Origin: a virus
IMG/VR virus record: IMGVR_UViG_3300009104_000017
Span: 3,308 to 67,307 of that record
DNA: 64,000 bases
Strand: one strand, 5' to 3'
The notes beneath the pieces were generated by a model. The model had not been told where the DNA came from and did no database searches. It saw only the letters and a list, made by a program, of their open reading frames with translations. This document shows positions 312-23,499 of this stretch, piece by piece. Each line of letters starts with the position of its first letter. Position 1 is the stretch's first letter. Both the position numbers and the translations under genes were made by a program.

Positions 312-1577
312 CTATTTTTCTTCTCCTGTAAAAACAATGCGTCCATTTTCCATCGCAAACATGCGTGGTGTTTCTGCTTCTGCTTCTACTGGCTGTTCCT
401 CATCACTGTGAGCTTTACCTTTTCCAAAAGTACGTTCTGCTTCCTCTGGTACTGGCATAGACTCCATAGCGATTGAGAATCCTTCTAGCTTAACCTCATC
501 CCAAGACGTGAGCTCCGAAACACGTGCTTCCTTGGCGTCGTCATCGACTTTGCCCAAGAGAGCTTCCTTCTCTATGATTGTGTTGACGAAGTTAGACTTT
601 CTTGCTTCTGCTTCTGCTTCTGCTAGTTTTGTCTTCTCTTCCTCAAAGCTTGTAATCATAGCGAGGGCTTCTTCGTGCTTGGCGTTCAGCTCATCGTAGG
701 AGGTCTTCATTTCTGCGAGTTGGTCTCTCATAGCTGCGAATTCACGCTCTACGATTGACTCTTCTCCAGAAACATCCTTATTTTCTACTGTTTCTTCAGC
801 CATAGTTATTTCCTCGCTGTGTGTCCCGTGTGTTTCACAGGCACATGCATCTTCTCCATGGCTACCACAGCCACAAGAAGATTCTGATTCCTCACCGAAT
901 TCACGGTGGTCATCACATTTCTTTCCTTCTTCAATTGTACATGCGTCACAAACGGGCGTGCGGGTTTCATTATCTATGAAACTCACCTCGATAGGACGTA
1001 TGTCGGTTGCAAACGGCTCTCCCATGACATCGATGTCTTTGGAGAACCAATCGATACTCACATGCGTCATATCACCGTTTTCTATCTTTTCTAGCACTTC
1101 ATTAGCTTTTGCTGCATCCTTATGAATGCGTGCAAGCATTTTAATACCTTTTTTACCATCTTCCATGTCAACCAACTCTGGGTTGATAGCCTTTCCGAGT
1201 AAATCGTCGTCGGTTCTCTGGTGATTGTAATAAACAGGCAGCTCTTCAAAAGCTTTCATATTCTGTTCGAGTATGGAGGGTTCTATAAAAACCTTTTGGT
1301 CGCCATCCTCGTCGTGGGGGCCCGACGTGATAGCAACAACTGGATATTCTATAAAATCATCTCCAACTATTGCGTCTCCTAAACCTAGCGCAAAAGTGCG
1401 CTGGGTCCCTTTTCGGTCCCCGGCAAAAGAACGAATATTTCTATCTTTAAATACTCCTTCATCTACCCTCATGCGGCATATATTGGCCGCAGTCTCTTCG
1501 TAGTTTTTGTCTCCACGCTTTTTTAGCGTAGGAGCTACTTCTATCAAACAACGCTCGTACACGTATTCATCGCTCAT
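312..1577 (-). CDS. prohead protease fused to acidic coiled-coil scaffold
   Basis: Follows portal; PVYYNH...LGK and HVSIDW...IEVSFID HK97-type protease motifs; acidic coiled-coil C-terminus. Confidence 0.75.
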   Translation of the reverse strand: MSDEYVYERCLIEVAPTLKKRGDKNYEETAANICRMRVDEGVFKDRNIRSFAGDRKGTQRTFALGLGDAIVGDDFIEYPVVAITSGPHDEDGDQKVFIEPSILEQNMKAFEELPVYYNHQRTDDDLLGKAINPELVDMEDGKKGIKMLARIHKDAAKANEVLEKIENGDMTHVSIDWFSKDIDVMGEPFATDIRPIEVSFIDNETRTPVCDACTIEEGKKCDDHREFGEESESSCGCGSHGEDACACETHGTHSEEITMAEETVENKDVSGEESIVEREFAAMRDQLAEMKTSYDELNAKHEEALAMITSFEEEKTKLAEAEAEARKSNFVNTIIEKEALLGKVDDDAKEARVSELTSWDEVKLEGFSIAMESMPVPEEAERTFGKGKAHSDEEQPVEAEAETPRMFAMENGRIVFTGEEK

Positions 1578-2898: not shown

Positions 2899-4578
2899 CT
2901 AGATTCCACCGGGTGAATGCTTTCTAAGGGGTCTTCTTGACCTACTTTTAGTAAATAAAGGCGTTGAAGAGTAGGATTTAAAGGTTTCGGTTGTTGTACG
3001 TGTAGGAGTATTTAAACTAACTGATGAAAATGATGATTCTGGTGGTAACATACCTAATGCTGCATGTAATGCAATCACTGTGCTATCACAATAATCGTCG
3101 TGTTTTCCTTCAGGTGCTGCAATTTTCTCTGTTTTTTGTGCAGCGTCCATAACATATTCCAAATCTATATGTTCTCTAAGCCATTTGTTGACTAACTTTG
3201 CTTCGTTCGGAGGTAATCCTTTAGGGTCAGGAACTTTAACCATTCCTTTTTGTATATAGGACACCATATCTCTATATACTTGTGTTTTAGTTCCTTTTGG
3301 TCCTCCTGTAAATATAAACGGTGTAAAATGTATTTGTGGTTTGTGTTGTATGCACGCCAGTCTCATCTCTTGTTCAATCGCTCCGCCAATACCTGTAGCG
3401 TCGATAATAAGCCTACTAGCACCAAAATCCCTACAATTAGCGAGTATACGACTTCGCTGATAAGGAATATCGTGTCCTCCAGATTTAGGTCCAATCTCTT
3501 CCAAGGAAATAAGTCTAGCAATGTTTCCCTCGTTTCCTTTTTCAGTAGCCCAAATACTAATAACAGTTGAATTAACGGACTTACCAATATCCACGCCCAC
3601 AACACAGTTATTAACTTTTGTTCCGCGCTCGACAAAGGAATAGGCTTCTCTACAGGCTTTAACAGCTTCGGGATTGAAGATTTGCGAAACCGACTCGATG
3701 AACTCGCACTCATATTCTGTCCTCCAATAAATTGAATCTTCTCCCCATTCAGTCATTTTAGTTAACATATCACTTTCTGTATATGGGGCAGAATAAGCTC
3801 TGCCTGCTTGAACAGCGTCTCTCCATGTAAAATGCATTCTATCAAAACTATCTCCATATCCATCATCGTAGAGATAGCGATACATATGGTTCTCTTTACT
3901 CTTAGGCGTACCTAAATTAATGAAAGGTGCCTTATTAGATACAATACATGGCTCTACATTATCTATAAAAAGCTTATCATCTATAAGTGGACTCTCATCT
4001 ACTACTAAGAAAGTAGGATGTTGTCCTCTAATAGCTTGACCTTGATTTGAAGCTGCGATAGGAGCTCTACGAAGCACCGTCCCACCCTTCATTGTGATAT
4101 TAGGCTTATTGTGATGCCTAAAATGGTCTATTAAGCCCATTAAAAAATCATTATCCGCAAAATGTCTATAACAGTAATTAAAGATAAGTGAAGCTTGGTC
4201 CTCAGATGGAGCCAAAACAAATATTAAATCTCTAAATCTTTTAAAGAACATATATATAACTACAGCTACAGAAAGAGCGTAGGATTTGCCTGAACCACGT
4301 GGAGCCAATATAGCTACCTTACGATGTTTTGCGGGGTCACCGGACGGGTGTGTCAAACATTTTAATACTATTTGTTCTTGTAATGGTCGTAGCTTTAGAG
4401 GTCTTCGATGTTGGTCAATTAGATAAGATTCACAAAATGCTCTAATCAATAATAACATTTTCTTATCGTCTTTTCTACATGCTTCAAAAACTTGTTCTAA
4501 TGCTCTAGAATCGTGTGCTAACTTCCCACTAATAGCTGCGTTCAGTTTCTTCTGTTCGTTCTTCACCGGGGTCGTCAT
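2899..4578 (-). CDS. terL: terminase large subunit
   Basis: Walker A APRGSGKS, Walker B LVVDES, nuclease GVDIG and HDDYCDS motifs. Confidence 0.95.
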   Translation of the reverse strand: MTTPVKNEQKKLNAAISGKLAHDSRALEQVFEACRKDDKKMLLLIRAFCESYLIDQHRRPLKLRPLQEQIVLKCLTHPSGDPAKHRKVAILAPRGSGKSYALSVAVVIYMFFKRFRDLIFVLAPSEDQASLIFNYCYRHFADNDFLMGLIDHFRHHNKPNITMKGGTVLRRAPIAASNQGQAIRGQHPTFLVVDESPLIDDKLFIDNVEPCIVSNKAPFINLGTPKSKENHMYRYLYDDGYGDSFDRMHFTWRDAVQAGRAYSAPYTESDMLTKMTEWGEDSIYWRTEYECEFIESVSQIFNPEAVKACREAYSFVERGTKVNNCVVGVDIGKSVNSTVISIWATEKGNEGNIARLISLEEIGPKSGGHDIPYQRSRILANCRDFGASRLIIDATGIGGAIEQEMRLACIQHKPQIHFTPFIFTGGPKGTKTQVYRDMVSYIQKGMVKVPDPKGLPPNEAKLVNKWLREHIDLEYVMDAAQKTEKIAAPEGKHDDYCDSTVIALHAALGMLPPESSFSSVSLNTPTRTTTETFKSYSSTPLFTKSRSRRPLRKHSPGGI

Positions 4579-12250: not shown

Positions 12251-12305
12251 AGCTTATGCAAGCCTTTATATAGGCACACTGTATGAGTAAACCAGAGGTA
12301 AAACA

Positions 12306-12601
12306 ATGAGAACAAGCGAAATACTAAACGGACTTGAAGCAATAACAGAACTTCTTTACGAAGTTGACGCCTATGACAAGGAATATTCCAGCCAAGTTAT
12401 AGCTAATGCAATGGAAATAATATTGGAGGTAGACCTATGAGTCGAAAAGACTATATCGCAATCGCCAACATCTTAAAGAAATGCAAACATGGAATTTCAA
12501 CAGCAAGTCAAGCAAAACTTGCAGAAGAATTTTGTGAGCTTTTCCTTTTCGATAATGAAAGATTCGATAGTGAAAAATTCTTAGAAGCCTGTGGCCTTTA
12601 A
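12306..12601 (+). CDS. two microgenes (12306-12440; 12437-12601 MSRKDYIAIA...DNERFDSEKFLEACG)
   Basis: Second resembles a widespread small phage protein pattern RKDY..IA...DN.RFD..KF..ACG. Confidence 0.7.
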
Positions 12602-12658: not shown

Positions 12659-12890
12659 TAACGGGGTAGCTCCCTGTTATCGTGAGTGGCCGAATAACTC
12701 CTTCCCAAAGGGAGTAAGGCACAAAAGCATATAGGAACGGACAAGTGTCTGACTTATATGTGGATGGTAAGCGCGGACAATACTTAGGTATTTGGGCCGG
12801 TGGTCTTTGGAGGTTAACCCAGAATCCTCCCTCACACCTTACGTTCAAGGTCTAAGCTCAGTCATTAATGTGGCGCTCTTAGGCCAGCGT
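12659..12890 (+). ncRNA. candidate ~200-230 nt structured RNA
   Basis: TATA at 12628-12638; no + strand ORF in the track; at least five hairpins, closing GUGAG(12682)/CUCAC(12831). Confidence 0.6.
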
Positions 12891-14182: not shown

Positions 14183-14241
14183 AACCCTCCTCTAATCTGG
14201 TTTTGGGGTAACCTTTAAATAGGGCCCCTCTACTGGTATAT

Positions 14242-14578
14242 TACAGTTAAAGCACGTGCCTTAACGGGCTTGAGCTATCAGTCGCAACTTTGAACAATCA
14301 CTGGAATAAATTGAACGGTAGAATATTAGTCAAATTGATGGAGCAGTTCACTCAGTAGGATAGTCACTTGTTTAAGAGGTAATCTTAAAACTCTGGCCAG
14401 TTAAATATCTTTCTCTCAAACTATTCACTCGATAACTTTGTATCACATTCCCTGACTTCATTATACTAAGTTCTCAAGTTTCTAAATTATGTAGCAAGTT
14501 CGCCCTCTGATTTGCGCGCCCCCTCTCGTCACTGGAAACGGTTGGAATGGGGGCCAAGCCCACCCTAGTATTTTTTTT
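14242..14578 (+). ncRNA. candidate ~330-nt structured RNA
   Basis: TATA at 14210-14221, T8 run at 14571-14578, end pairing GGGCUUG(14266)/CAAGCCC(14555), GAAA tetraloop hairpin. Confidence 0.6.
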
Positions 14579-16420: not shown

Positions 16421-16666
16421 CCAACATTTATTAGTTCGTGGTATTATAGTAGATTTTGTATACCGTTCACCCCACCACACACATATAGATAGGACAAATG
16501 TCGCTGAGTAGATGGATGCTGAATATATTTAGATATGAGACTCCCATAGGAGTATACTCATATAAAGATATATTATTTATTACTGACTACAATAGTAGTA
16601 TAGAGGTCGAGGAAAGCTTTAAATACCCCTCCGACCATTTAGGATTACCGAAAGGAATAAACAACA

Positions 16667-17683
16667 ATGAGTGAAAAGACACCATTAGAGGAGATGTTCG
16701 ATATAAGTCGAGACGAAGATAGAGATATGACCGATGAGGAAATATCTATACTTGAGTCAGGCGAAAGAGAGGATGACTCCCATGCTGAGCCAATCGTAGA
16801 AGATGAACCCGTAGTTCATATTCCAACGGTTATATCTAAGTTAAAGGGTAGTGTAGACATACCGGAAGAGTTTAAGTTTACGGATGATACTACTTTCTAT
16901 TCTATGCTTAGAAATATATATAGAGGTAAATCTATATTAGTAACAGGACCATCAGGTTGTGGTAAGAGTAGTTTAGGTAAAATACTTGCTGAGATTACTG
17001 ATAAGCCATTCCATGCGTTTAACTTTGGAGATACAATGAACCCAAGTGCTAAGCTACTTGGTGACACTAAGTTTGATAAAGAGAAAGGCACATGGTTTAA
17101 GCCATCTCGATTCGTATCTGCACTAAAAGATGAACGTGGTTCATTTATAATGTTAGATGAAGTTACGAGAGATAGAACCGGTGACTTAGCTAATATCCTT
17201 ATGCCTGTCTTAGATGGACAGAGATACTTAGCCTTAGATGAAAGTGAAGATGCTGACGTGGTAAAGATAGACGATGGCGCATTTTTCTTTGCTACTGCTA
17301 ATATTGGTAGAGAATATCTCGGTGCTTCTCATGACTTAGATAGAGCATGGAAAGATAGATTCACCGGTGGTATATATGAATTAGAATATCTACCTAAGAA
17401 TAAGGAAAAATCACTACTTATGATAAGGAACCCTAACCTTAAAGATAAAGATGCTGAACATATAACTGACTTTGCTGAAAGAGTAAGAGCATTGTATAAG
17501 GCAGATGAACTTAATACTTCTGTGTCTACCCGTATGTGTCTAACTGCGTCAGAATTAGTAGTAGACGGAATGGATTTGTTAGAAGCATTGAAGATGACAT
17601 GCTTACCTTTCTATCCTATTACTGCTGGTGATGATACTGAAAGAGTAAGAGTGATACAAACTATACAAGCTATGGGAGAGTAA
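16667..17683 (+). CDS. MoxR/CbbQ/CobS-like AAA+ ATPase
   Basis: GPSGCGKS, IMLDE, FATAN, LDRAWKDRF, VSTR. Confidence 0.9.
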   Translation: MSEKTPLEEMFDISRDEDRDMTDEEISILESGEREDDSHAEPIVEDEPVVHIPTVISKLKGSVDIPEEFKFTDDTTFYSMLRNIYRGKSILVTGPSGCGKSSLGKILAEITDKPFHAFNFGDTMNPSAKLLGDTKFDKEKGTWFKPSRFVSALKDERGSFIMLDEVTRDRTGDLANILMPVLDGQRYLALDESEDADVVKIDDGAFFFATANIGREYLGASHDLDRAWKDRFTGGIYELEYLPKNKEKSLLMIRNPNLKDKDAEHITDFAERVRALYKADELNTSVSTRMCLTASELVVDGMDLLEALKMTCLPFYPITAGDDTERVRVIQTIQAMGE

Positions 17684-18067
17684 ATGGCTAAAAGTAGAAA
17701 GAAAGACATATATTGGCATAATGTAGCAAGGATATGTATTGAGTATGGATTTAAACCAGCTCAAACAGCTAAGGTAATAAAAGAGATATTTCCACAGGCT
17801 GAAGTTACAGGTAGGCACATTGGTGCTTACAAACGTAGACTTACATCCGAAGGGGCAATAACAGAAGTATTACCGTCTAACCTTATATCTATTAGAGATA
17901 TGGTAGAACAAGCTAAAGATATGGTTACAGGTGAAGATATGTTTATCTATAAATGTTCCGTTGGTAGTCATAAGAGAAGTCTAAAGTGCTTTGAGTATAA
18001 ACTAACAGCAGAATTAGAAGATGAAATAACAAAGATAGAAACATGGATAGAGACGATAAAGAAATAG
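17684..18067 (+). CDS. hypothetical protein (possible HTH)
   Basis: In operon between the AAA+ and vWA genes. Confidence 0.6.
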   Translation: MAKSRKKDIYWHNVARICIEYGFKPAQTAKVIKEIFPQAEVTGRHIGAYKRRLTSEGAITEVLPSNLISIRDMVEQAKDMVTGEDMFIYKCSVGSHKRSLKCFEYKLTAELEDEITKIETWIETIKK

Positions 18068-20055
18068 AATACGCACCTAAAGGTATGTTTCCTGAAGATG
18101 ATGAAGATTCTTATGAGATAGAATTAGATTCTGACTTAGACGTATGGAATCGTGGTAGTGGTTATACTTGGGGTGGTGGCACTTCATGGTGGCAATCAAG
18201 TCACGGTGGTTCTACCATGTCGAGTATGTGGTCATGGGGTGGCAGTAGTTATACCCATAACAACGCATCTCGTATGCTTAAACATAAAACTCATATTGAT
18301 AGTTTATGTAAAGTTACTGACCCTAATGTTTCTCATACCCTTGATTTTGCATCCGACCATACAAGTGGTCATACTGATATGAATCGTGGTCATATTGTTG
18401 TTGATGGTAGTCTTATCAAAGATAACGATGATAAGTTAGACGTATTATCAGGATTGGCTATACACGAAAAGCTACACGTTATTCATAGTAAACCATTAAT
18501 GAGATGGCAAAGTGATAAGAGATATGAGTTATGTAAAACTCAAGGTAGTAGAGAATTATTACATTCTATCGCTAATATTGTAGAAGATGAGTATATAGAA
18601 CGTCAGTTACATAAGACATGTGCTGGGTATGTTCATTATATCGAAGCTTGTAAGAAACATTACTTTGATTCTCAAGCCGATGCTATTAATAGTGATACTA
18701 ATGAGTTTAGTGATATACTAAATACTTTCCTTATGTTAGTTAGATACCCATCTGAGATAGATTTAGATAGGCGTAAACGCCATGCGCCCCACATCCGAGT
18801 GATGATGAGTGCCATTAGGAAAGGTATAGACAGCCGTGAGGCTACATATGTTTGTATAGAAACTATATTTAGATATATGTTAGCTATTGCAGAAAAGATG
18901 GCTGAAAAAGATAAAGATAAACTTTCTAAAGATATGGCTGAACGTGCAGAAAAGATGGCAGAGAAAAGATATGGTGAAGAGTTTGGTGATATGGAAGGTA
19001 TAGATGATGCTATGAAAAAGGAGATAAAAGAAGGATTAGCTAAAGATATACTAAAAAGACTACTAAGTAGGATGGACCCATCTGATAGTGTTTCTACTGT
19101 ATGGGATAAGGCTATGAAGAAAGCCGTTGAAGCGTTATCTGATTATAAAGCTGAAACTATTGATGAAGCTCTCCGTAAAGAGATAAAAGAATTAGCAGAT
19201 AGTGACTACTATGAAACAAAGATAGGAAGAGAGATAGCTATTTCTTCAGGACAAAGAGATATAGCATGGCAAAAAGCTATGCCTTCAGAATATGACAGAG
19301 ATAGATATAAGACTGAAAAAAGACTTATGAAAGGTCAAATTTCTAAATTAAAAAAGAAAATACAACTCTATGGAAATTTACAAAAACACCATATATACAA
19401 CCAAAAGAGAGGTATATTAGATAAGCGTCAGCTACATAAGATACCTATGGGTATGACTGATATTTTTAGAGCTACTGTAATTCAGGAAGATAAACCATTG
19501 GATATATGTATACTTGTAGATGAGTCCGGTAGTATGGGTAGTTACACTATGAGAGATGCGCGTATGGGTGCTATCGCTGTTAAAGAAGCATTAGCTGATA
19601 ATGAAAAGATAAACCTATGGGTATACGGACATAGTGCTGATGAAACTGTTAAAGGTCAAACTGATATGATTGAATATTGGTCTCCTACTATGAAAGATAG
19701 ACCTATGGCTATGGGTGGTATGAAAGCAAGGTATGAAAACCGTGATGGTAATGCCATAGTAGCAAGTGCGGATAAAGTTAAAAGTGAATCTGATAACAAT
19801 GCCCATAAGCTTATGATTGTAATGTCAGATGGTGCGCCATCTGCTGACGGATATAGAGGTCACGGTGCTAAAGACCATACTAAGAAATGTGTTAAGCATA
19901 TAGAGCAACAAGGTTGGAGTGTTATCCAAGTTGGATTTAGTGGTGCTTACGAATGGATGATGAAGGATATGTTTGATAATTGGGTATATGTAGATAATAC
20001 AGATAAACTCGGTGACGAACTATCAAAGATTATCCGTAAGGTGGTAAAGATATGA
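18043..20055 (+). CDS. CobT-like vWA-domain partner of the AAA+ ATPase
   Basis: MIDAS DESGSM, MSDGAP; N-terminal HEKLH...NIVED.YIE. Confidence 0.88.
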   Translation: MDRDDKEIEYAPKGMFPEDDEDSYEIELDSDLDVWNRGSGYTWGGGTSWWQSSHGGSTMSSMWSWGGSSYTHNNASRMLKHKTHIDSLCKVTDPNVSHTLDFASDHTSGHTDMNRGHIVVDGSLIKDNDDKLDVLSGLAIHEKLHVIHSKPLMRWQSDKRYELCKTQGSRELLHSIANIVEDEYIERQLHKTCAGYVHYIEACKKHYFDSQADAINSDTNEFSDILNTFLMLVRYPSEIDLDRRKRHAPHIRVMMSAIRKGIDSREATYVCIETIFRYMLAIAEKMAEKDKDKLSKDMAERAEKMAEKRYGEEFGDMEGIDDAMKKEIKEGLAKDILKRLLSRMDPSDSVSTVWDKAMKKAVEALSDYKAETIDEALRKEIKELADSDYYETKIGREIAISSGQRDIAWQKAMPSEYDRDRYKTEKRLMKGQISKLKKKIQLYGNLQKHHIYNQKRGILDKRQLHKIPMGMTDIFRATVIQEDKPLDICILVDESGSMGSYTMRDARMGAIAVKEALADNEKINLWVYGHSADETVKGQTDMIEYWSPTMKDRPMAMGGMKARYENRDGNAIVASADKVKSESDNNAHKLMIVMSDGAPSADGYRGHGAKDHTKKCVKHIEQQGWSVIQVGFSGAYEWMMKDMFDNWVYVDNTDKLGDELSKIIRKVVKI

Positions 20056-20553
20056 ATGGACTACACTTAGATGGAAACGTAGGATGTATGTATTTTCTTA
20101 GATGGGAAAATATAGTAAATGATAATATCACTACTGAATTACTATGGTGTTCTAACTTAGATATACCATTAGAAGAAATGGACCATGATTATTTAGTAGA
20201 AACCTTAGAATATATCTTTAAAGATAACTATGGAAGTATAGTAAAAGATGTGCATGAATGGGAACCTAATTGGGCTATCCCTGACGGTGCTTACTTTAAC
20301 TTAGGATATGATTGATATGGTAACGATAAAGAATAATGCAAAAGCAACCTTAAAAGGTAAGACTAAGATTAGTCGTATGTGGTTGATACGAAAATTATGT
20401 CAGAAGAAATATAAAACCGTTCGCCCCACCGCTGTCCAGATAAAGGGAGTGATAGACGAATATGGCCTGAATAGATATACTACTGATGGTAAGAAAAGAG
20501 ATAAAGAGGTGATTACTAAAGCTATGCAAAAGGCTATTGCCTCTTTACGCTAA
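20052..20553 (+). CDS. two hypothetical proteins (20052-20315 acidic; 20308-20553 basic)
   Basis: Overlapping ORFs on the coding strand. Confidence 0.6.
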
Positions 20554-20631
20554 GTGGATAGGATAGGAGTAGGAACCCAATTTTTTAATTGACTCATTGT
20601 TTACCTCTTTACCTGCTCTTATCCCCATAAA

Positions 20632-21365
20632 TAGTCGTATAGACTTGAACATTCGCCCCTAAAGTCACAGAGAGAACTTATATCAACCCTGTAAAGCTAC
20701 GGAAATCTCAAGGAGTAAGCTCAAGGGATAATCCCTTTAAAAATATGGGTGATAAACAAGGAGAAGGAGTATGGTTGTTGATATAGGACTATAACTGACT
20801 GAGATATAGAAAGGCCACGCTTACCGCTATCGAGACAATGTCACGCGTATATGTAAGTAGTAGGACTTGGGCTATATCCCAAACAGGTGAGATATACATT
20901 CGAACTTCGTAGTAATACCAAAATCGAATACACATCTCTGGAAAACTGTCGTTATAGATATGTGTTTGCTGGTGAGGAATAACCGATGGAGTATTTTATA
21001 CCTAAAGTAGGTTATGCGCTATCCCTGAGTCATGGAATTTCACTGTCCACTATAAGGATATAATGAACATGAACATATAGCTTAGACCGGAACACTATTC
21101 TTAGTAGGAAGGAGGGTATATGGTTCCTCCTTTAAACTGAACCAAGCTTAGGAGATATATCTTTGTAGCAGAACAGTCGTTGCGATAGTTCCTGAACAGA
21201 TATATAGCTAATCATTATGCACTACCTTTGCGTAAAGCGAGAATCCTACCGTTATTTGATGGAATTAGAAGAATCAGATAATGTATGCGCTTCAGATGAG
21301 TAGTTATCTGAACATCGTATATGAGAACCTCTGCTTTGTTTAGGGGAAGTCTCTCTATACGACTA
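20632..21365 (+). ncRNA. candidate large (~735 nt) multi-domain structured ncRNA
   Basis: Gap with no + strand ORF; perfect 12-bp terminal pairing, nested long-range stems and many hairpins; next promoter at 21374; strand inferred from context and G-U pairs. Confidence 0.75.
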
Positions 21366-21543
21366 CCATGACCGAAACCTTTAAATAGGATGGTGCAGTT
21401 ATTATGATGATGAAAAAGAAGTCGTTGGCTAAACAGCCTTATGAGTCCTATGAATTGCCTAAATCTGCTGAGAAAGGCGGGTCTTTTGTAGACTTCAATA
21501 GGATTATAGAGAGAAAACCTGTAAAGGTAGTGAGAAAGAAAAA

Positions 21544-23499
21544 ATGATACCCCAAACGAGATGTAACACTTGCGGATGCACATTAGCATTAGCATATGCT
21601 AAGTATAAAGATACTGCTGGGAATACCTATTGCTATGTATGCTATCAGAGGTTACTATGAGTAATAGAGACGATATGATATCATCTGATTCAGTTATGCT
21701 TGTAACCGGTATGTTATTCGGATTTTGTATTGGGCTTGTGGTAGGATATTGGATATTATGAACACAAAAGTTATAGAGTTGGCTCGTGAGCTTTTAGAAA
21801 CGAGTGATTATTTATGGGAAAAAGCCATAGAGATGGCTGAGGAAGAATTAGGCATAGGTTATTATGATGAAAATTAGAGATGTGTGGGATTATCCTACAC
21901 GTATGAATGAAGCTATGTGGTATATCCTTATAGCTTTCTTCGCAATGATATGGATGTGGATGTTTATATGGGCATAAGTTGGAGAGTAACATATGAAGAG
22001 TTTTGTTTTGGATATCTCCAGATATTTATTGCCTTAGCAATATGGGGTATTTAGATGGATATTTGCACTTGGTGTAATATTGAAAGAGAAGAGTTATATA
22101 TGGGCGGAGGATTATATGTATATAAATGCCCTAAATGTAATAGTAGAATGGAAGTGAAACAATGAAAAGAGATAGAAGTAGTTTAGCTACACGAATAAAG
22201 AAGCTGGAAGCTGAGAATGAACTATTGAAAGACTATATTGATAATATAGCTTGTATAATAGAATGTCAGATGCCTTTAAAGGAACAGGATTTATGGGTAG
22301 ATGATGTAGTTGATATGGGATGGTATAAACGTGGTAGCGACTAAGAACGAGATAGAAGAGATAGTTAGAGTTATGTGCCAATGGTTACCTGAAACCTATG
22401 CTTATGATATGATGACAGAAGTATGGGATGTGGTTGGGCAGTATACTGATAATGAATCTCTTAAAGAAACTATTAGATTAATAGTAGATGAAATAGAGAA
22501 TCAGGACCACATTAAGTGGGATGGTATAGAAGAGATTAGATGAGTGGTGATTGGAGTTTATATAATGTCAAATACTGTAAAATATGTAGTGATAGGATTC
22601 GCCTTAGTCAGCACATTCTGTATGATAGCACTTGTTTCGCTTGTTTGGAGAACATAAGAGATGCCAAAAAAGATAAAAAGCGTAAAGAAATCGAAAAGCT
22701 CAAAGCCCAAGTCGAGTGGGATGACTAAAGTCAGTAAAGAAGAGCTTGAGAATATACTTATACGAGAAATACAAAAAGAAAATGCACCAAAGATTGCTCT
22801 ACATAATGCATTATTAGAGATAGAATCATTAAAAGAAAAGATAAGACACCCTACATATCATGACTTAGGAAAACCACATGCTTTCCATAAACCTGAGAGT
22901 TTTTACATTGATAATGAACTTGAAGTATGGAGTGACGTAAATAATAGGATGATGCAGATGGAACTTACTAATATAACTTCTTTCTTTATGACTACTGTCG
23001 TGAGTATAATGGCTTGTGTTGTAGTTGGTTTATGGGTGGTATGGCCGTGAGTTGGTATAATATTAAACAAACAATACGAGAAGTATTAGGATTAAGCTTT
23101 AATTATAAATGAGAAAAAAACATTATATCAATCCTGAATTGAAAACAACATGGTGTGGTAGACCTTTGAAAGGTAGGCATATAAGGTCAGGTATGAAAAG
23201 CCTTAAGTATGTTAACTGTAAACATTGTTTAAATCAAGTCACGGGAGATAAACCTGATAAATATTGGAATAAATATCCTGAATACAAAAAGTTATATGAA
23301 AGTTAATGGTAGAAGAGGATTCAAAAAGACTGATACAGTCATACCCGACCACAGGGGTAATAAATGTTATAACTGTGGTAAAAACACACGCAACAAAGAG
23401 AGAATATACTGTAAGAAGTGTAGATATGACCTACATTATGGTAGACGTCATGGCTTTATGTCATTAGAGGAGTTTGTAAACGACCCTTTCTATGACTGA
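21544..23499 (+). CDS. run of small hypothetical genes, several CxxC Zn-ribbons (e.g. 22162-22344, 22540-22728, 23109-23306, 23296-23499)
   Basis: Closely packed short ORFs; individual boundaries less certain. Confidence 0.5.

Follow-up and report, generated by a model that had tools for sequence, protein, structure and literature searches.

A structured non-coding region downstream of CobS/CobT-like genes

The stretch analyzed here, 64,000 nucleotides (nt) from positions 3,308 to 67,307 of IMG/VR virus record IMGVR_UViG_3300009104_000017, is called the window. It comprises nearly all of the 67,307-bp record, which is rated 96% complete. Our subject is the region at 20554-21365 on the + strand, most of which an earlier annotation, here called the original prediction, had taken for a large structured non-coding RNA. 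Comparison with related sequences identifies it as the largest copy seen so far of what is very probably a real family of structured RNAs read from the + strand, which appears to be undescribed, modular and carried by uncultured marine tailed viruses. The data show a conserved, modular element without coding capacity and with a fixed position, whose base pairs covary and whose pairing points to the + strand.

The RNA element is flanked by an open reading frame (ORF) of 81 aa that ends at 20553 and by a 47-aa ORF that starts at 21404. The features of the locus, in order and all on the + strand, are as follows.

16667-20055 (+): CobS/CobT-like block upstream of the RNA, with the CobS-like AAA+ ATPase, a 127-aa ORF and the CobT-like VWA protein
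16667-17683 (+): CobS-like AAA+ ATPase (Pfam AAA_5/CbbQ_C)
18043-20055 (+): CobT-like VWA protein (Pfam VWA/CobT_C)
20554-20629 (+): P0 hairpin, arms at about 20554-20573 and 20613-20629, directly after the stop codon of the 81-aa ORF
20632-20643 (+): P1, 5' arm of the closing stem (TAGTCGTATAGA), from the perfect repeat and covariation
20656-20663 and 20668-20672 (+): 5' arms of P2 (CCCCTAAA) and P3 (CAGAG), with compensatory changes in relatives
20679-20785 (+): window-specific arm, closed by TATATCAAC (20679) and GTTGATATA (20777), in the minimum free energy fold
20789-20957 (+): middle domain, closed by CTATAAC (20789-20795) and GTTATAG (20951-20957), from alignment A7 of 7 sequences
20803-20809 and 20872-20878 (+): M2, GATATAG with CTATATC, compensatory changes at 2 pairs
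20889-20893 and 20934-20938 (+): M3, GAGAT with ATCTC, invariant
20898-20903 and 20924-20929 (+): variable hairpin, ATTCGA with TCGAAT and GTA-GTAA-TAC inside, compensatory changes at 2 pairs
21091-21275 (+): 3' domain, from the match to covariance model R1
21108-21115 and 21126-21132 (+): Ha hairpin, GAAGGAGG with CCTCCTT, loop GTATATGGTT, then GAACCAAG; 7 of 8 pairs changed
21144-21154 and 21222-21231 (+): Hb, AAGCTTAGGAG with CTACCTTTGC; 6 of 9 pairs changed
21155 and 21198 (+): hairpin inserted in the 3' domain, ATATATCT with AGATATAT
21207-21208 and 21219-21220 (+): Hc, GC with GC, closing the conserved loop TAATCATTAT (21209-21218)
21291-21312 (+): terminal hairpin, TTCAGATGA with TTATCTGAA, in the minimum free energy fold
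21329-21333 and 21339-21346 (+): 3' arms of P3 (CTCTG) and P2 (TTTAGGGG), from RNAalifold and pair counts
21354-21365 (+): P1, 3' arm (TCTATACGACTA), from the repeat and covariation
21376-21387 (+): promoter-like box AACCTTTAAATA of the next gene (47-aa ORF from 21404), marking the 3' limit of the element

Between 20540 and 21420, each of the six reading frames contains 13-24 stop codons of all three kinds. Because all three stops fill all six frames, recoding or reassignment of stop codons in the gap was rejected. The observation from which the original prediction started, a structured gap without coding capacity, holds: the six frames are closed, the stems are in place, and relatives keep the structure. 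Every motif that it listed lies where it had been placed. These comprise the perfect 12-nt closing pairing of TAGTCGTATAGA (20632) with TCTATACGACTA (21354), the nested pairings CCCCTAAA (20656) with TTTAGGGG (21339), CAGAG (20668) with CTCTG (21329) and TATATCAAC (20679) with GTTGATATA (20777), and the local elements AAGGGATAATCCCTT (20723), GTAGTAATAC (20909), ATTCGA (20898) with TCGAAT (20924), AGGAGG (21110) with CCTCCT (21126), ATATATCT (21155) with AGATATAT (21198), and TTCAGATGA (21291) with TTATCTGAA (21304). The hairpin AAGGGA-TAA-TCCCTT (20723-20737) sits inside the window-specific arm, and the loop of P0 holds a T6 run and CTCAT-N-TTTACCTC. The next promoter had been predicted to start 9 nt past the closing stem, and the AAACC lead-in of box AACCTTTAAATA indeed begins there. 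A further proposed stem, TTGGG (20867) with CCCAA (20878), is present in the window and is not kept among relatives; these pair CTATATC (20872-20878) with GATATAG (20803-20809) in its place, and this alternative pairing covaries.

In a repeat scan of 2 kb, the two P1 arms form a perfect 12-nt inverted repeat with 710 nt between the arms, which taken alone is near chance level. The predicted fold has an energy of -198.7 kcal/mol on the + strand (z -3.16) and of -190.5 kcal/mol on the - strand (z -4.34), and in both cases none of 20 shuffled sequences was as good, in agreement with the expectation of the original prediction that the energy should be better than that of shuffles. Since both strands fold well, folding energy cannot separate them. 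Rather than the window alone, it is the comparison with relatives that, at the level of sequence, settles that the element exceeds chance. The same 2-kb scan also returned a 13-nt perfect inverted repeat, CTATAAGGATATA (21050-21062) with TATATCCTTATAG (21921-21933), of which one arm lies within the RNA and the other 858 nt downstream among an array of small genes; it is unsupported and probably due to chance.

Relatives share a small base with variable arms

The CobT-like protein has 413 metagenome relatives at E <= 1e-10. An alignment of 27 CobT-like relatives fetched 23 IMG/VR loci, and the sequence of the gap matched eight of these at E <= 0.001 (nhmmer and blastn; L003, L004, L005, L006, L007, L009, L020 and L021), each time on the same strand and directly downstream of the CobT-like gene. 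More divergent copies were recognized by reading the sequences, and the element is present in 19 of the 23 loci. The remaining four are L008, which ends too early to judge, and L023-L025, which lack the element and have CobT-like proteins that are only 33-41% identical. A pattern search with P0 gave 58 metagenome loci, 57 of them true members and one (L065) a chance match. Of 67 loci, 56 have a gene for a CobT-like protein upstream of P0 and on its strand, at a distance of 90-1192 nt; among the 11 exceptions, ten offer less than 800 nt of upstream sequence, and the last is the chance match. The position is fixed in all informative loci and the orientation is always that of the neighboring genes. 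P0 is near-invariant across loci, whereas the CobT-like proteins are 44-58% identical to that of the window.

Other queries were less productive. The 17-nt P0 pattern had 13 matches in IMG/VR, six in contigs of relatives and seven by chance in coding DNA; a single CobT-like protein as query found one short contig with an unrelated downstream region, and the 81-aa upstream ORF found no relatives. No second copy or related module was detected in the window (nhmmer at E up to 1), where blastn gave only marginal matches of 20-25 nt. In a collection of genomes from 185,579 species, one genome each, neither the P0 pattern nor the CobT alignment had a match.

We collected 46 complete copies, 40 of them distinct. 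To be retained, a copy had to have a promoter-like box or a ribosome-binding site behind its 3' arm, and the box after this arm is therefore a selection rule and not a finding; L046, L074, L077 and L084 were admitted by a Shine-Dalgarno sequence with ATG. In these four, the closing stem is followed by AAGGA(A/G)TTAATATGG, i.e., a ribosome-binding site and start codon, with no promoter box. The cores of the complete copies measure 125-734 nt, the window having the longest, and the shortest of the divergent members have about 57 nt (L019). The original prediction called the RNA giant, which fits the window copy of 734 nt and not the family, the constant part of which is small and the cores of which span about 57-734 nt.

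The members fall into three base types, A (including the window), B and C, with a shared plan. From 5' to 3', P0 starts a few bases past the upstream stop codon and is followed by a short linker, P1 formed from the paired ends, an internal loop (5' CYU, 3' UC), P2 and P3. All further arms are inserted at the tip of P3, which is empty in the 57-nt form and carries three domains in the window. The window contains every part of our working definition of the family: P0 after the CobT-like block, P1, the CYU/UC loop, P2, P3 and then the promoter box. The arms are conserved blocks that recur among members in varied combinations and places. Recurring blocks are the hairpin GAGAACGTCGCATAGCGATGAAAG, the position of which differs between members, the Ha hairpin with GATATGGAT in its loop and GAGAACCAAG behind it, the sequence TAATCATTAT as a loop, and CGTCAAGCGAACCTA.

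Base pairs covary and favor the + strand

For the 20 sequences of type A, RNAalifold gave 39 pairs in P0-P3, and 98.1% of the 774 cells are paired. Both sides have changed in 17 of the 39 pairs, compared to 5.9 +/- 1.4 in shuffles (0/500 reach 17), while slid controls were 41-55% paired with 2-6 pairs changed on both sides. P0 alone contributes 17 pairs that are 100% paired in the 20 sequences, seven of them changed on both sides. Compensatory variants of P2 and P3 include CCCCAAAG/TTTGGGG, CCCAAGA/TCTTGGG and CTAAG/CTTAG. RNAalifold on the complete type-A alignment returned the outer stems only, because the interior is misaligned.

The 13 type-C sequences are 97.9% paired in a model with long-range P2 and P3, with nine of 37 pairs changed on both sides (3.4 +/- 1.1 in shuffles, 0/500) and slid controls at 34-52% paired and 0-1 pairs; further pair types were not above shuffles (389/500). 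RNAalifold preferred two local hairpins at the base of type C. We rejected these in favor of the long-range model because the change from GAGU/GCUC to GAAU/GUUC in L043 and L015 keeps the long-range pairing and breaks the local one. In P1, the 40 distinct complete elements have 20 distinct helices, each complementary to its own partner (381 Watson-Crick and 7 G-U pairs), whereas only 47% of positions pair if an arm is set against the partner of another helix.

The inner domains show the same behavior. Covariance model R1 was built from the 3' domains of six relatives and has 21 matches in relatives, with 31 pairs that are 91.6% paired (25-54% in slid controls) and 16 of the 31 changed on both sides; this alignment was fitted to the model, and its helix ACCAA/UUGGU is invariant. 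RNAalifold on 13 sequences of the 3' domain returned seven pairs. The window matches R1 at 21091-21275 with 24.9 bits (E 1.8e-5 in 951 nt). In the middle domain, M2 and the variable hairpin covary in seven sequences, the window included. The loops of Ha and Hc, a candidate kissing contact, vary little.

The type of non-Watson-Crick pairs points to the strand. Type A has 64 G-U cells and 4 A-C cells, and type C 54 and 1, respectively. P0 has frequent G-U pairs and an invariant U-G, and several U-G pairs never vary. G-U pairs being far more numerous than A-C, the RNA is very probably read on the + strand.

The element is distinct from known RNA classes

Rfam 15 produced no match at gathering thresholds in the 64-kb window, a test that the original prediction had proposed; the models include GOLLD, ROOL, OLE, HEARO, raiA, RNase P, the signal recognition particle RNA, riboswitches and ribozymes. 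At E up to 10, the segment 20400-21600 gave only four chance-level matches of 13.5-15.7 bits, with thresholds at 45-62. Among the loci of 12 relatives, manA was the only Rfam family found, and it lies outside the element. Full-text searches of the literature found no description of the RNA. The claim of a new large structured non-coding RNA is thus upheld by the lack of an Rfam 15 threshold match, by covariation of the long-range stems and of two inner domains, and by flanking genes that are separate and conserved.

GOLLD and ROOL lie near tRNA genes. Like these RNAs, the element is borne by viruses, reaches several hundred nt, has many covarying helices and conserved loops, has no known function, and emerged from comparison of metagenomes. 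It differs in lacking an Rfam 15 match, in its probably archaeal rather than bacterial host, in its link to a CobS/CobT-like operon, and in its range of about 57-734 nt on one small constant base. GOLLD and ROOL form RNA-only multimers according to a cryo-electron microscopy report (10.1101/2024.12.08.627333).

The manA motif (RF01745) is an orphan structured RNA of about 190 nt from marine metagenomes and marine viruses, located in 5' untranslated regions (Weinberg et al., 2010, PMC2864571). The element is likewise an orphan structured RNA of marine viruses and occurs in the same viruses as manA. It has another locus and another fold, and no manA match was found at 20554-21403. As a separate observation, manA scores above its gathering threshold of 55.2 bits (57.5-63.6 bits) in L012 at 669-843 (+), L074 at 14186-14368 (-) and L006 at 996-1179 (-). 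The match in the window at 12659-12840 (+) falls just under it (49.5 bits, E 1.3e-10) and overlaps a multi-hairpin RNA noted at 12659-12890 by the author of the original prediction.

A looser analogy is offered by small RNAs derived from 3' untranslated regions and by Y RNAs. The former are made at mRNA ends, and the latter have a basal stem from paired ends, above which the modules vary. The protein bound by Y RNAs, Ro60, contains a VWA domain. By analogy only, the element resembles these RNAs in its probable origin at the end of an mRNA, in its paired-end base with variable modules and in its neighbor gene for a VWA protein; it differs in that no Rfam Y RNA model matches, that Pfam finds no TROVE/Ro domain in the CobT-like protein, and that the element is far larger.

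Transcription and host

The box AA[C/G]CTTTAWATA, which we take to resemble an archaeal promoter with B recognition element (BRE) and TATA box, is about nine times over-represented in the window, with 26 matches at <= 1 mismatch compared to 2.77 expected. It often appears as GAAAGCTTTATATA, with sites at, e.g., 16614, 21376, 23587, 41281 and 58987 (-), mostly 20-60 nt before start codons. One box (16614-16625) precedes the CobS-like gene, and the next on the same strand is at 21376, after the element. Since no box lies between 16614 and 21376, the RNA is more likely to form the 3' part of the transcription unit of the cobST-like genes than to be a separate gene.

Transcription of the element is hinted at by contigs from RNA libraries of two studies, which cover 20651-20893 (X2), 20652-20961 (X3) and 20928-21147 (X5). 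Short X5 pieces at 21201-21240, which stem from relatives, have a depth of 43-85, compared to about 5 for the X5 contig on the CobT-like gene. Cover of the element by contigs is partial, which does not speak against transcription of the remainder, and the single joint seen is uninformative, being the variant of a relative.

The record encodes a terminase large subunit, a portal protein and a prohead protease (Pfam), i.e., genes of tailed viruses, in addition to a family B DNA polymerase, a ribonucleotide reductase, the CobS-like AAA+ ATPase and the 670-aa CobT-like VWA protein (Pfam). Judging from the promoter-like box, an archaeal host is likely. The original prediction of an archaeal virus is therefore in line with the over-represented BRE/TATA-like box and the tailed-virus genes, and lacks a host link in cellular genomes, where the P0 pattern and the CobT alignment gave none. 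No close DNA relatives of the window were found among cultured phages, and the cultured viruses nearest by CobT-like protein and terminase, at 19-29% identity, have mixed hosts and are uninformative. A CobS gene is described as typical of Marthaviruses. RadA was absent from the 20 ORFs scanned with Pfam, and membership of the Marthaviruses is therefore not claimed. The manA motif is otherwise known from cyanophages and gamma-proteobacteria (Weinberg et al., 2010, PMC2864571).

Possible roles of the RNA

Our best guess, which may as well prove wrong as right, is that the 3' end of the cobST-like operon gives rise to a stable RNA that serves as a scaffold. Its constant part would consist of P0, which begins where the last gene of the CobS/CobT-like block has its stop codon, and a basal platform P1-P2-P3 formed by the paired ends, with the tip of P3 bearing a variable set of conserved, interchangeable arms. 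Transcription from the box at 16614 would yield the RNA together with the operon mRNA; trimming near P0 and P1 may follow, and the RNA could then accumulate as a stable molecule that acts in trans. It would work through its folded shape, by binding a protein or by self-assembly, and not as a riboswitch, intron, mobile element or DNA site. The conserved loops, the reshuffled arms and a P0 that is near-invariant beside proteins of 44-58% identity suggest an RNA that acts by its shape rather than a mere stabilizing hairpin.

Several findings weigh against this interpretation. The fold z-score of the + strand (-3.16) is no better than that of the - strand (-4.34), and the P1 stems of type-B members L007, L080, L094 and L096 carry an A-C mismatch that would be G-U on the - strand. 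The other 19 type-A sequences have nothing that corresponds to the arm at 20679-20785, an insertion without comparative support, and the last hairpin (21291-21312) lacks such support as well. Model R1 matches the window only when searched locally; in a search of 563 kb the window did not attain an E of 0.01. The RNA evidence consists of assembled contigs, which give no strand, ends or level, from libraries that can hold DNA, and the deep X5 pieces cover a block shared by many relatives. The arm-less 57-nt form (L019) indicates that the base alone suffices in some viruses, which fits a simple cis-acting hairpin equally well, and in L046, L074, L077 and L084 a ribosome-binding site and ATG come directly after the element, which there lies between cistrons of an mRNA. 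No protein partner and no target were identified.

The most serious alternative is that the element acts in cis in the operon mRNA, in its 3' untranslated region or between cistrons, where it would block 3'-to-5' decay, insulate, or terminate transcription before the next promoter, with no role in trans. We regard this as possible, if on the unlikely side. The element occupies the space from the stop codon that closes the operon's last gene to just short of the following promoter box, and P0 loops contain T runs of 3-7; the length of these runs is not conserved. The 57-nt hairpin forms and the copies between two cistrons in four relatives keep this explanation alive. However, a stabilizer needs no conserved loops, yet TAATCATTAT, GATATGGAT and the block CGTCAAGCGAACCTA are kept where the stems covary, and the arms are shared and reshuffled among members instead of drifting.

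The scaffold proposal has a more specific version, in which the RNA would be the working partner of the adjacent AAA+ ATPase/VWA pair, as an RNA-protein machine or as a GOLLD/ROOL-like RNA-only cage in an archaeal host, the base docking and the arms being tuned to hosts. CobS/CobT genes are carried by many marine viruses, with an unsettled role. We consider this version unlikely.

Slightly less probable still is that the P0 loop is the working part and the large fold its carrier. The loop (20585-20612) is the reverse complement of a start region, i.e., a strong ribosome-binding site and ATGAG (GAGGTAAA..ATGAG), and could as antisense silence translation of a viral or host mRNA. The loop motif CTCAT-N(1-9)-[A/T]CCTC occurs in 32 of 42 distinct P0 sequences, and a same-strand start region in the window (12293-12310, of a 44-aa ORF at 12306) matches the complement of the loop with one indel; the P0 loop of L003 matches the start region of this ORF at 23 of 25 positions. 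In five genomes the forward pattern had 1-2 matches each, seven in total, compared to none for the reversed control. On the other hand, the same-strand matches in genomes G000, G003 and G004 precede genes for small, unrelated proteins, no such match exists in G001 or G002, the type-C loops lack the CCTC half, and no match with <= 3 mismatches was found elsewhere in any of 32 loci, starts of cobS and cobT included. A conserved target of the loop was thus not found in the five genomes or the 32 loci.

Very doubtful is processing by an archaeal splicing endonuclease, by which the interior would be excised at bulge-helix-bulge-like paired ends and circularized, as in archaeal rRNA precursors. The ends do pair in a long stem, like rRNA processing stems, a 4-bp helix (GAGU/GCUC or GAUA/UAUC) stands beside the conserved 3-nt CYU loop, and the host is probably archaeal. 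A bulge-helix-bulge requires two 3-nt bulges on opposite strands of a 4-bp helix; inspection instead gave a 4-bp helix with the 5' 3-nt CYU and two unpaired nt opposite, and an inner loop of 6x4, the internal loops thus being 3x2 and 6x4. Contigs with a back-joined junction were not found, though data of this type could hardly reveal any. K-turn and hammerhead readings of the conserved loops were rejected, since by inspection neither fits, and a bulge-helix-bulge fits poorly on the same basis.

That the element works as DNA, whether as a small transposon bounded by terminal inverted repeats, a site of recombination or an origin of replication, is suggested by the perfect 12-bp terminal inverted repeat and the good folding of both strands, but is already largely refuted and highly improbable: the position is fixed in all informative loci, neither a second copy in the window nor a P0 match in the 185,579 species' genomes was found, there is no target-site duplication, and P1-P3 and the inner helices covary with G-U far above A-C, a pattern that DNA-protein sites would not give. 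A miniature inverted-repeat transposable element was rejected in particular, with one copy per genome and no direct repeats at the ends; the single fixed site and the lack of a second copy indicate that the element is not mobile. An equally remote explanation is a self-splicing intron or self-cleaving ribozyme, for which the size, the ornate fold and a hammerhead-core-like sequence in relatives (GATGAG after a hairpin) could speak, but the elements are not arranged as in a hammerhead, the Rfam models of group I and group II introns, of the hammerhead and of other ribozymes gave no match with E up to 10, the 5' end reads UAGUCG where a group II intron should have GUGYG, there is no ORF of any size, and the flanks are whole ORFs conserved as separate genes with no split frame, so that the element is not an intron. 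The original prediction had likewise seen neither a group II domain V nor a split host gene.

Non-coding RNAs that are both large and richly structured are rare, and GOLLD, ROOL, OLE and raiA each raised questions on what RNA can do without protein. The family is widespread in ocean metagenomes (57 of the 58 loci of one pattern scan, plus IMG/VR contigs), and probably belongs to archaeal viruses, for which no RNA class of this kind has been catalogued. A small constant base with arms that come and go amounts to a natural deletion series of 57-734 nt that can be used in experiments, and the strict link to viral CobS/CobT-like genes provides a lead to the function of the RNA and the genes alike.

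Neighboring genes

The Pfam match in the CobT-like protein covers only the C-terminal VWA domain. Its N-terminal part contains an invariant HExxH-like motif (AIHEKLH) and NI[VI]EDEY across 27 relatives of 56-80% identity. On the 3' side of the RNA, two small genes are conserved between the window (21404-21660) and L003 (6516-6780), one for a basic protein of 47 aa and one for a protein of 38 aa that contains two CxxC pairs. In most other relatives this slot is taken by different genes (MIRE..., MQTF...).

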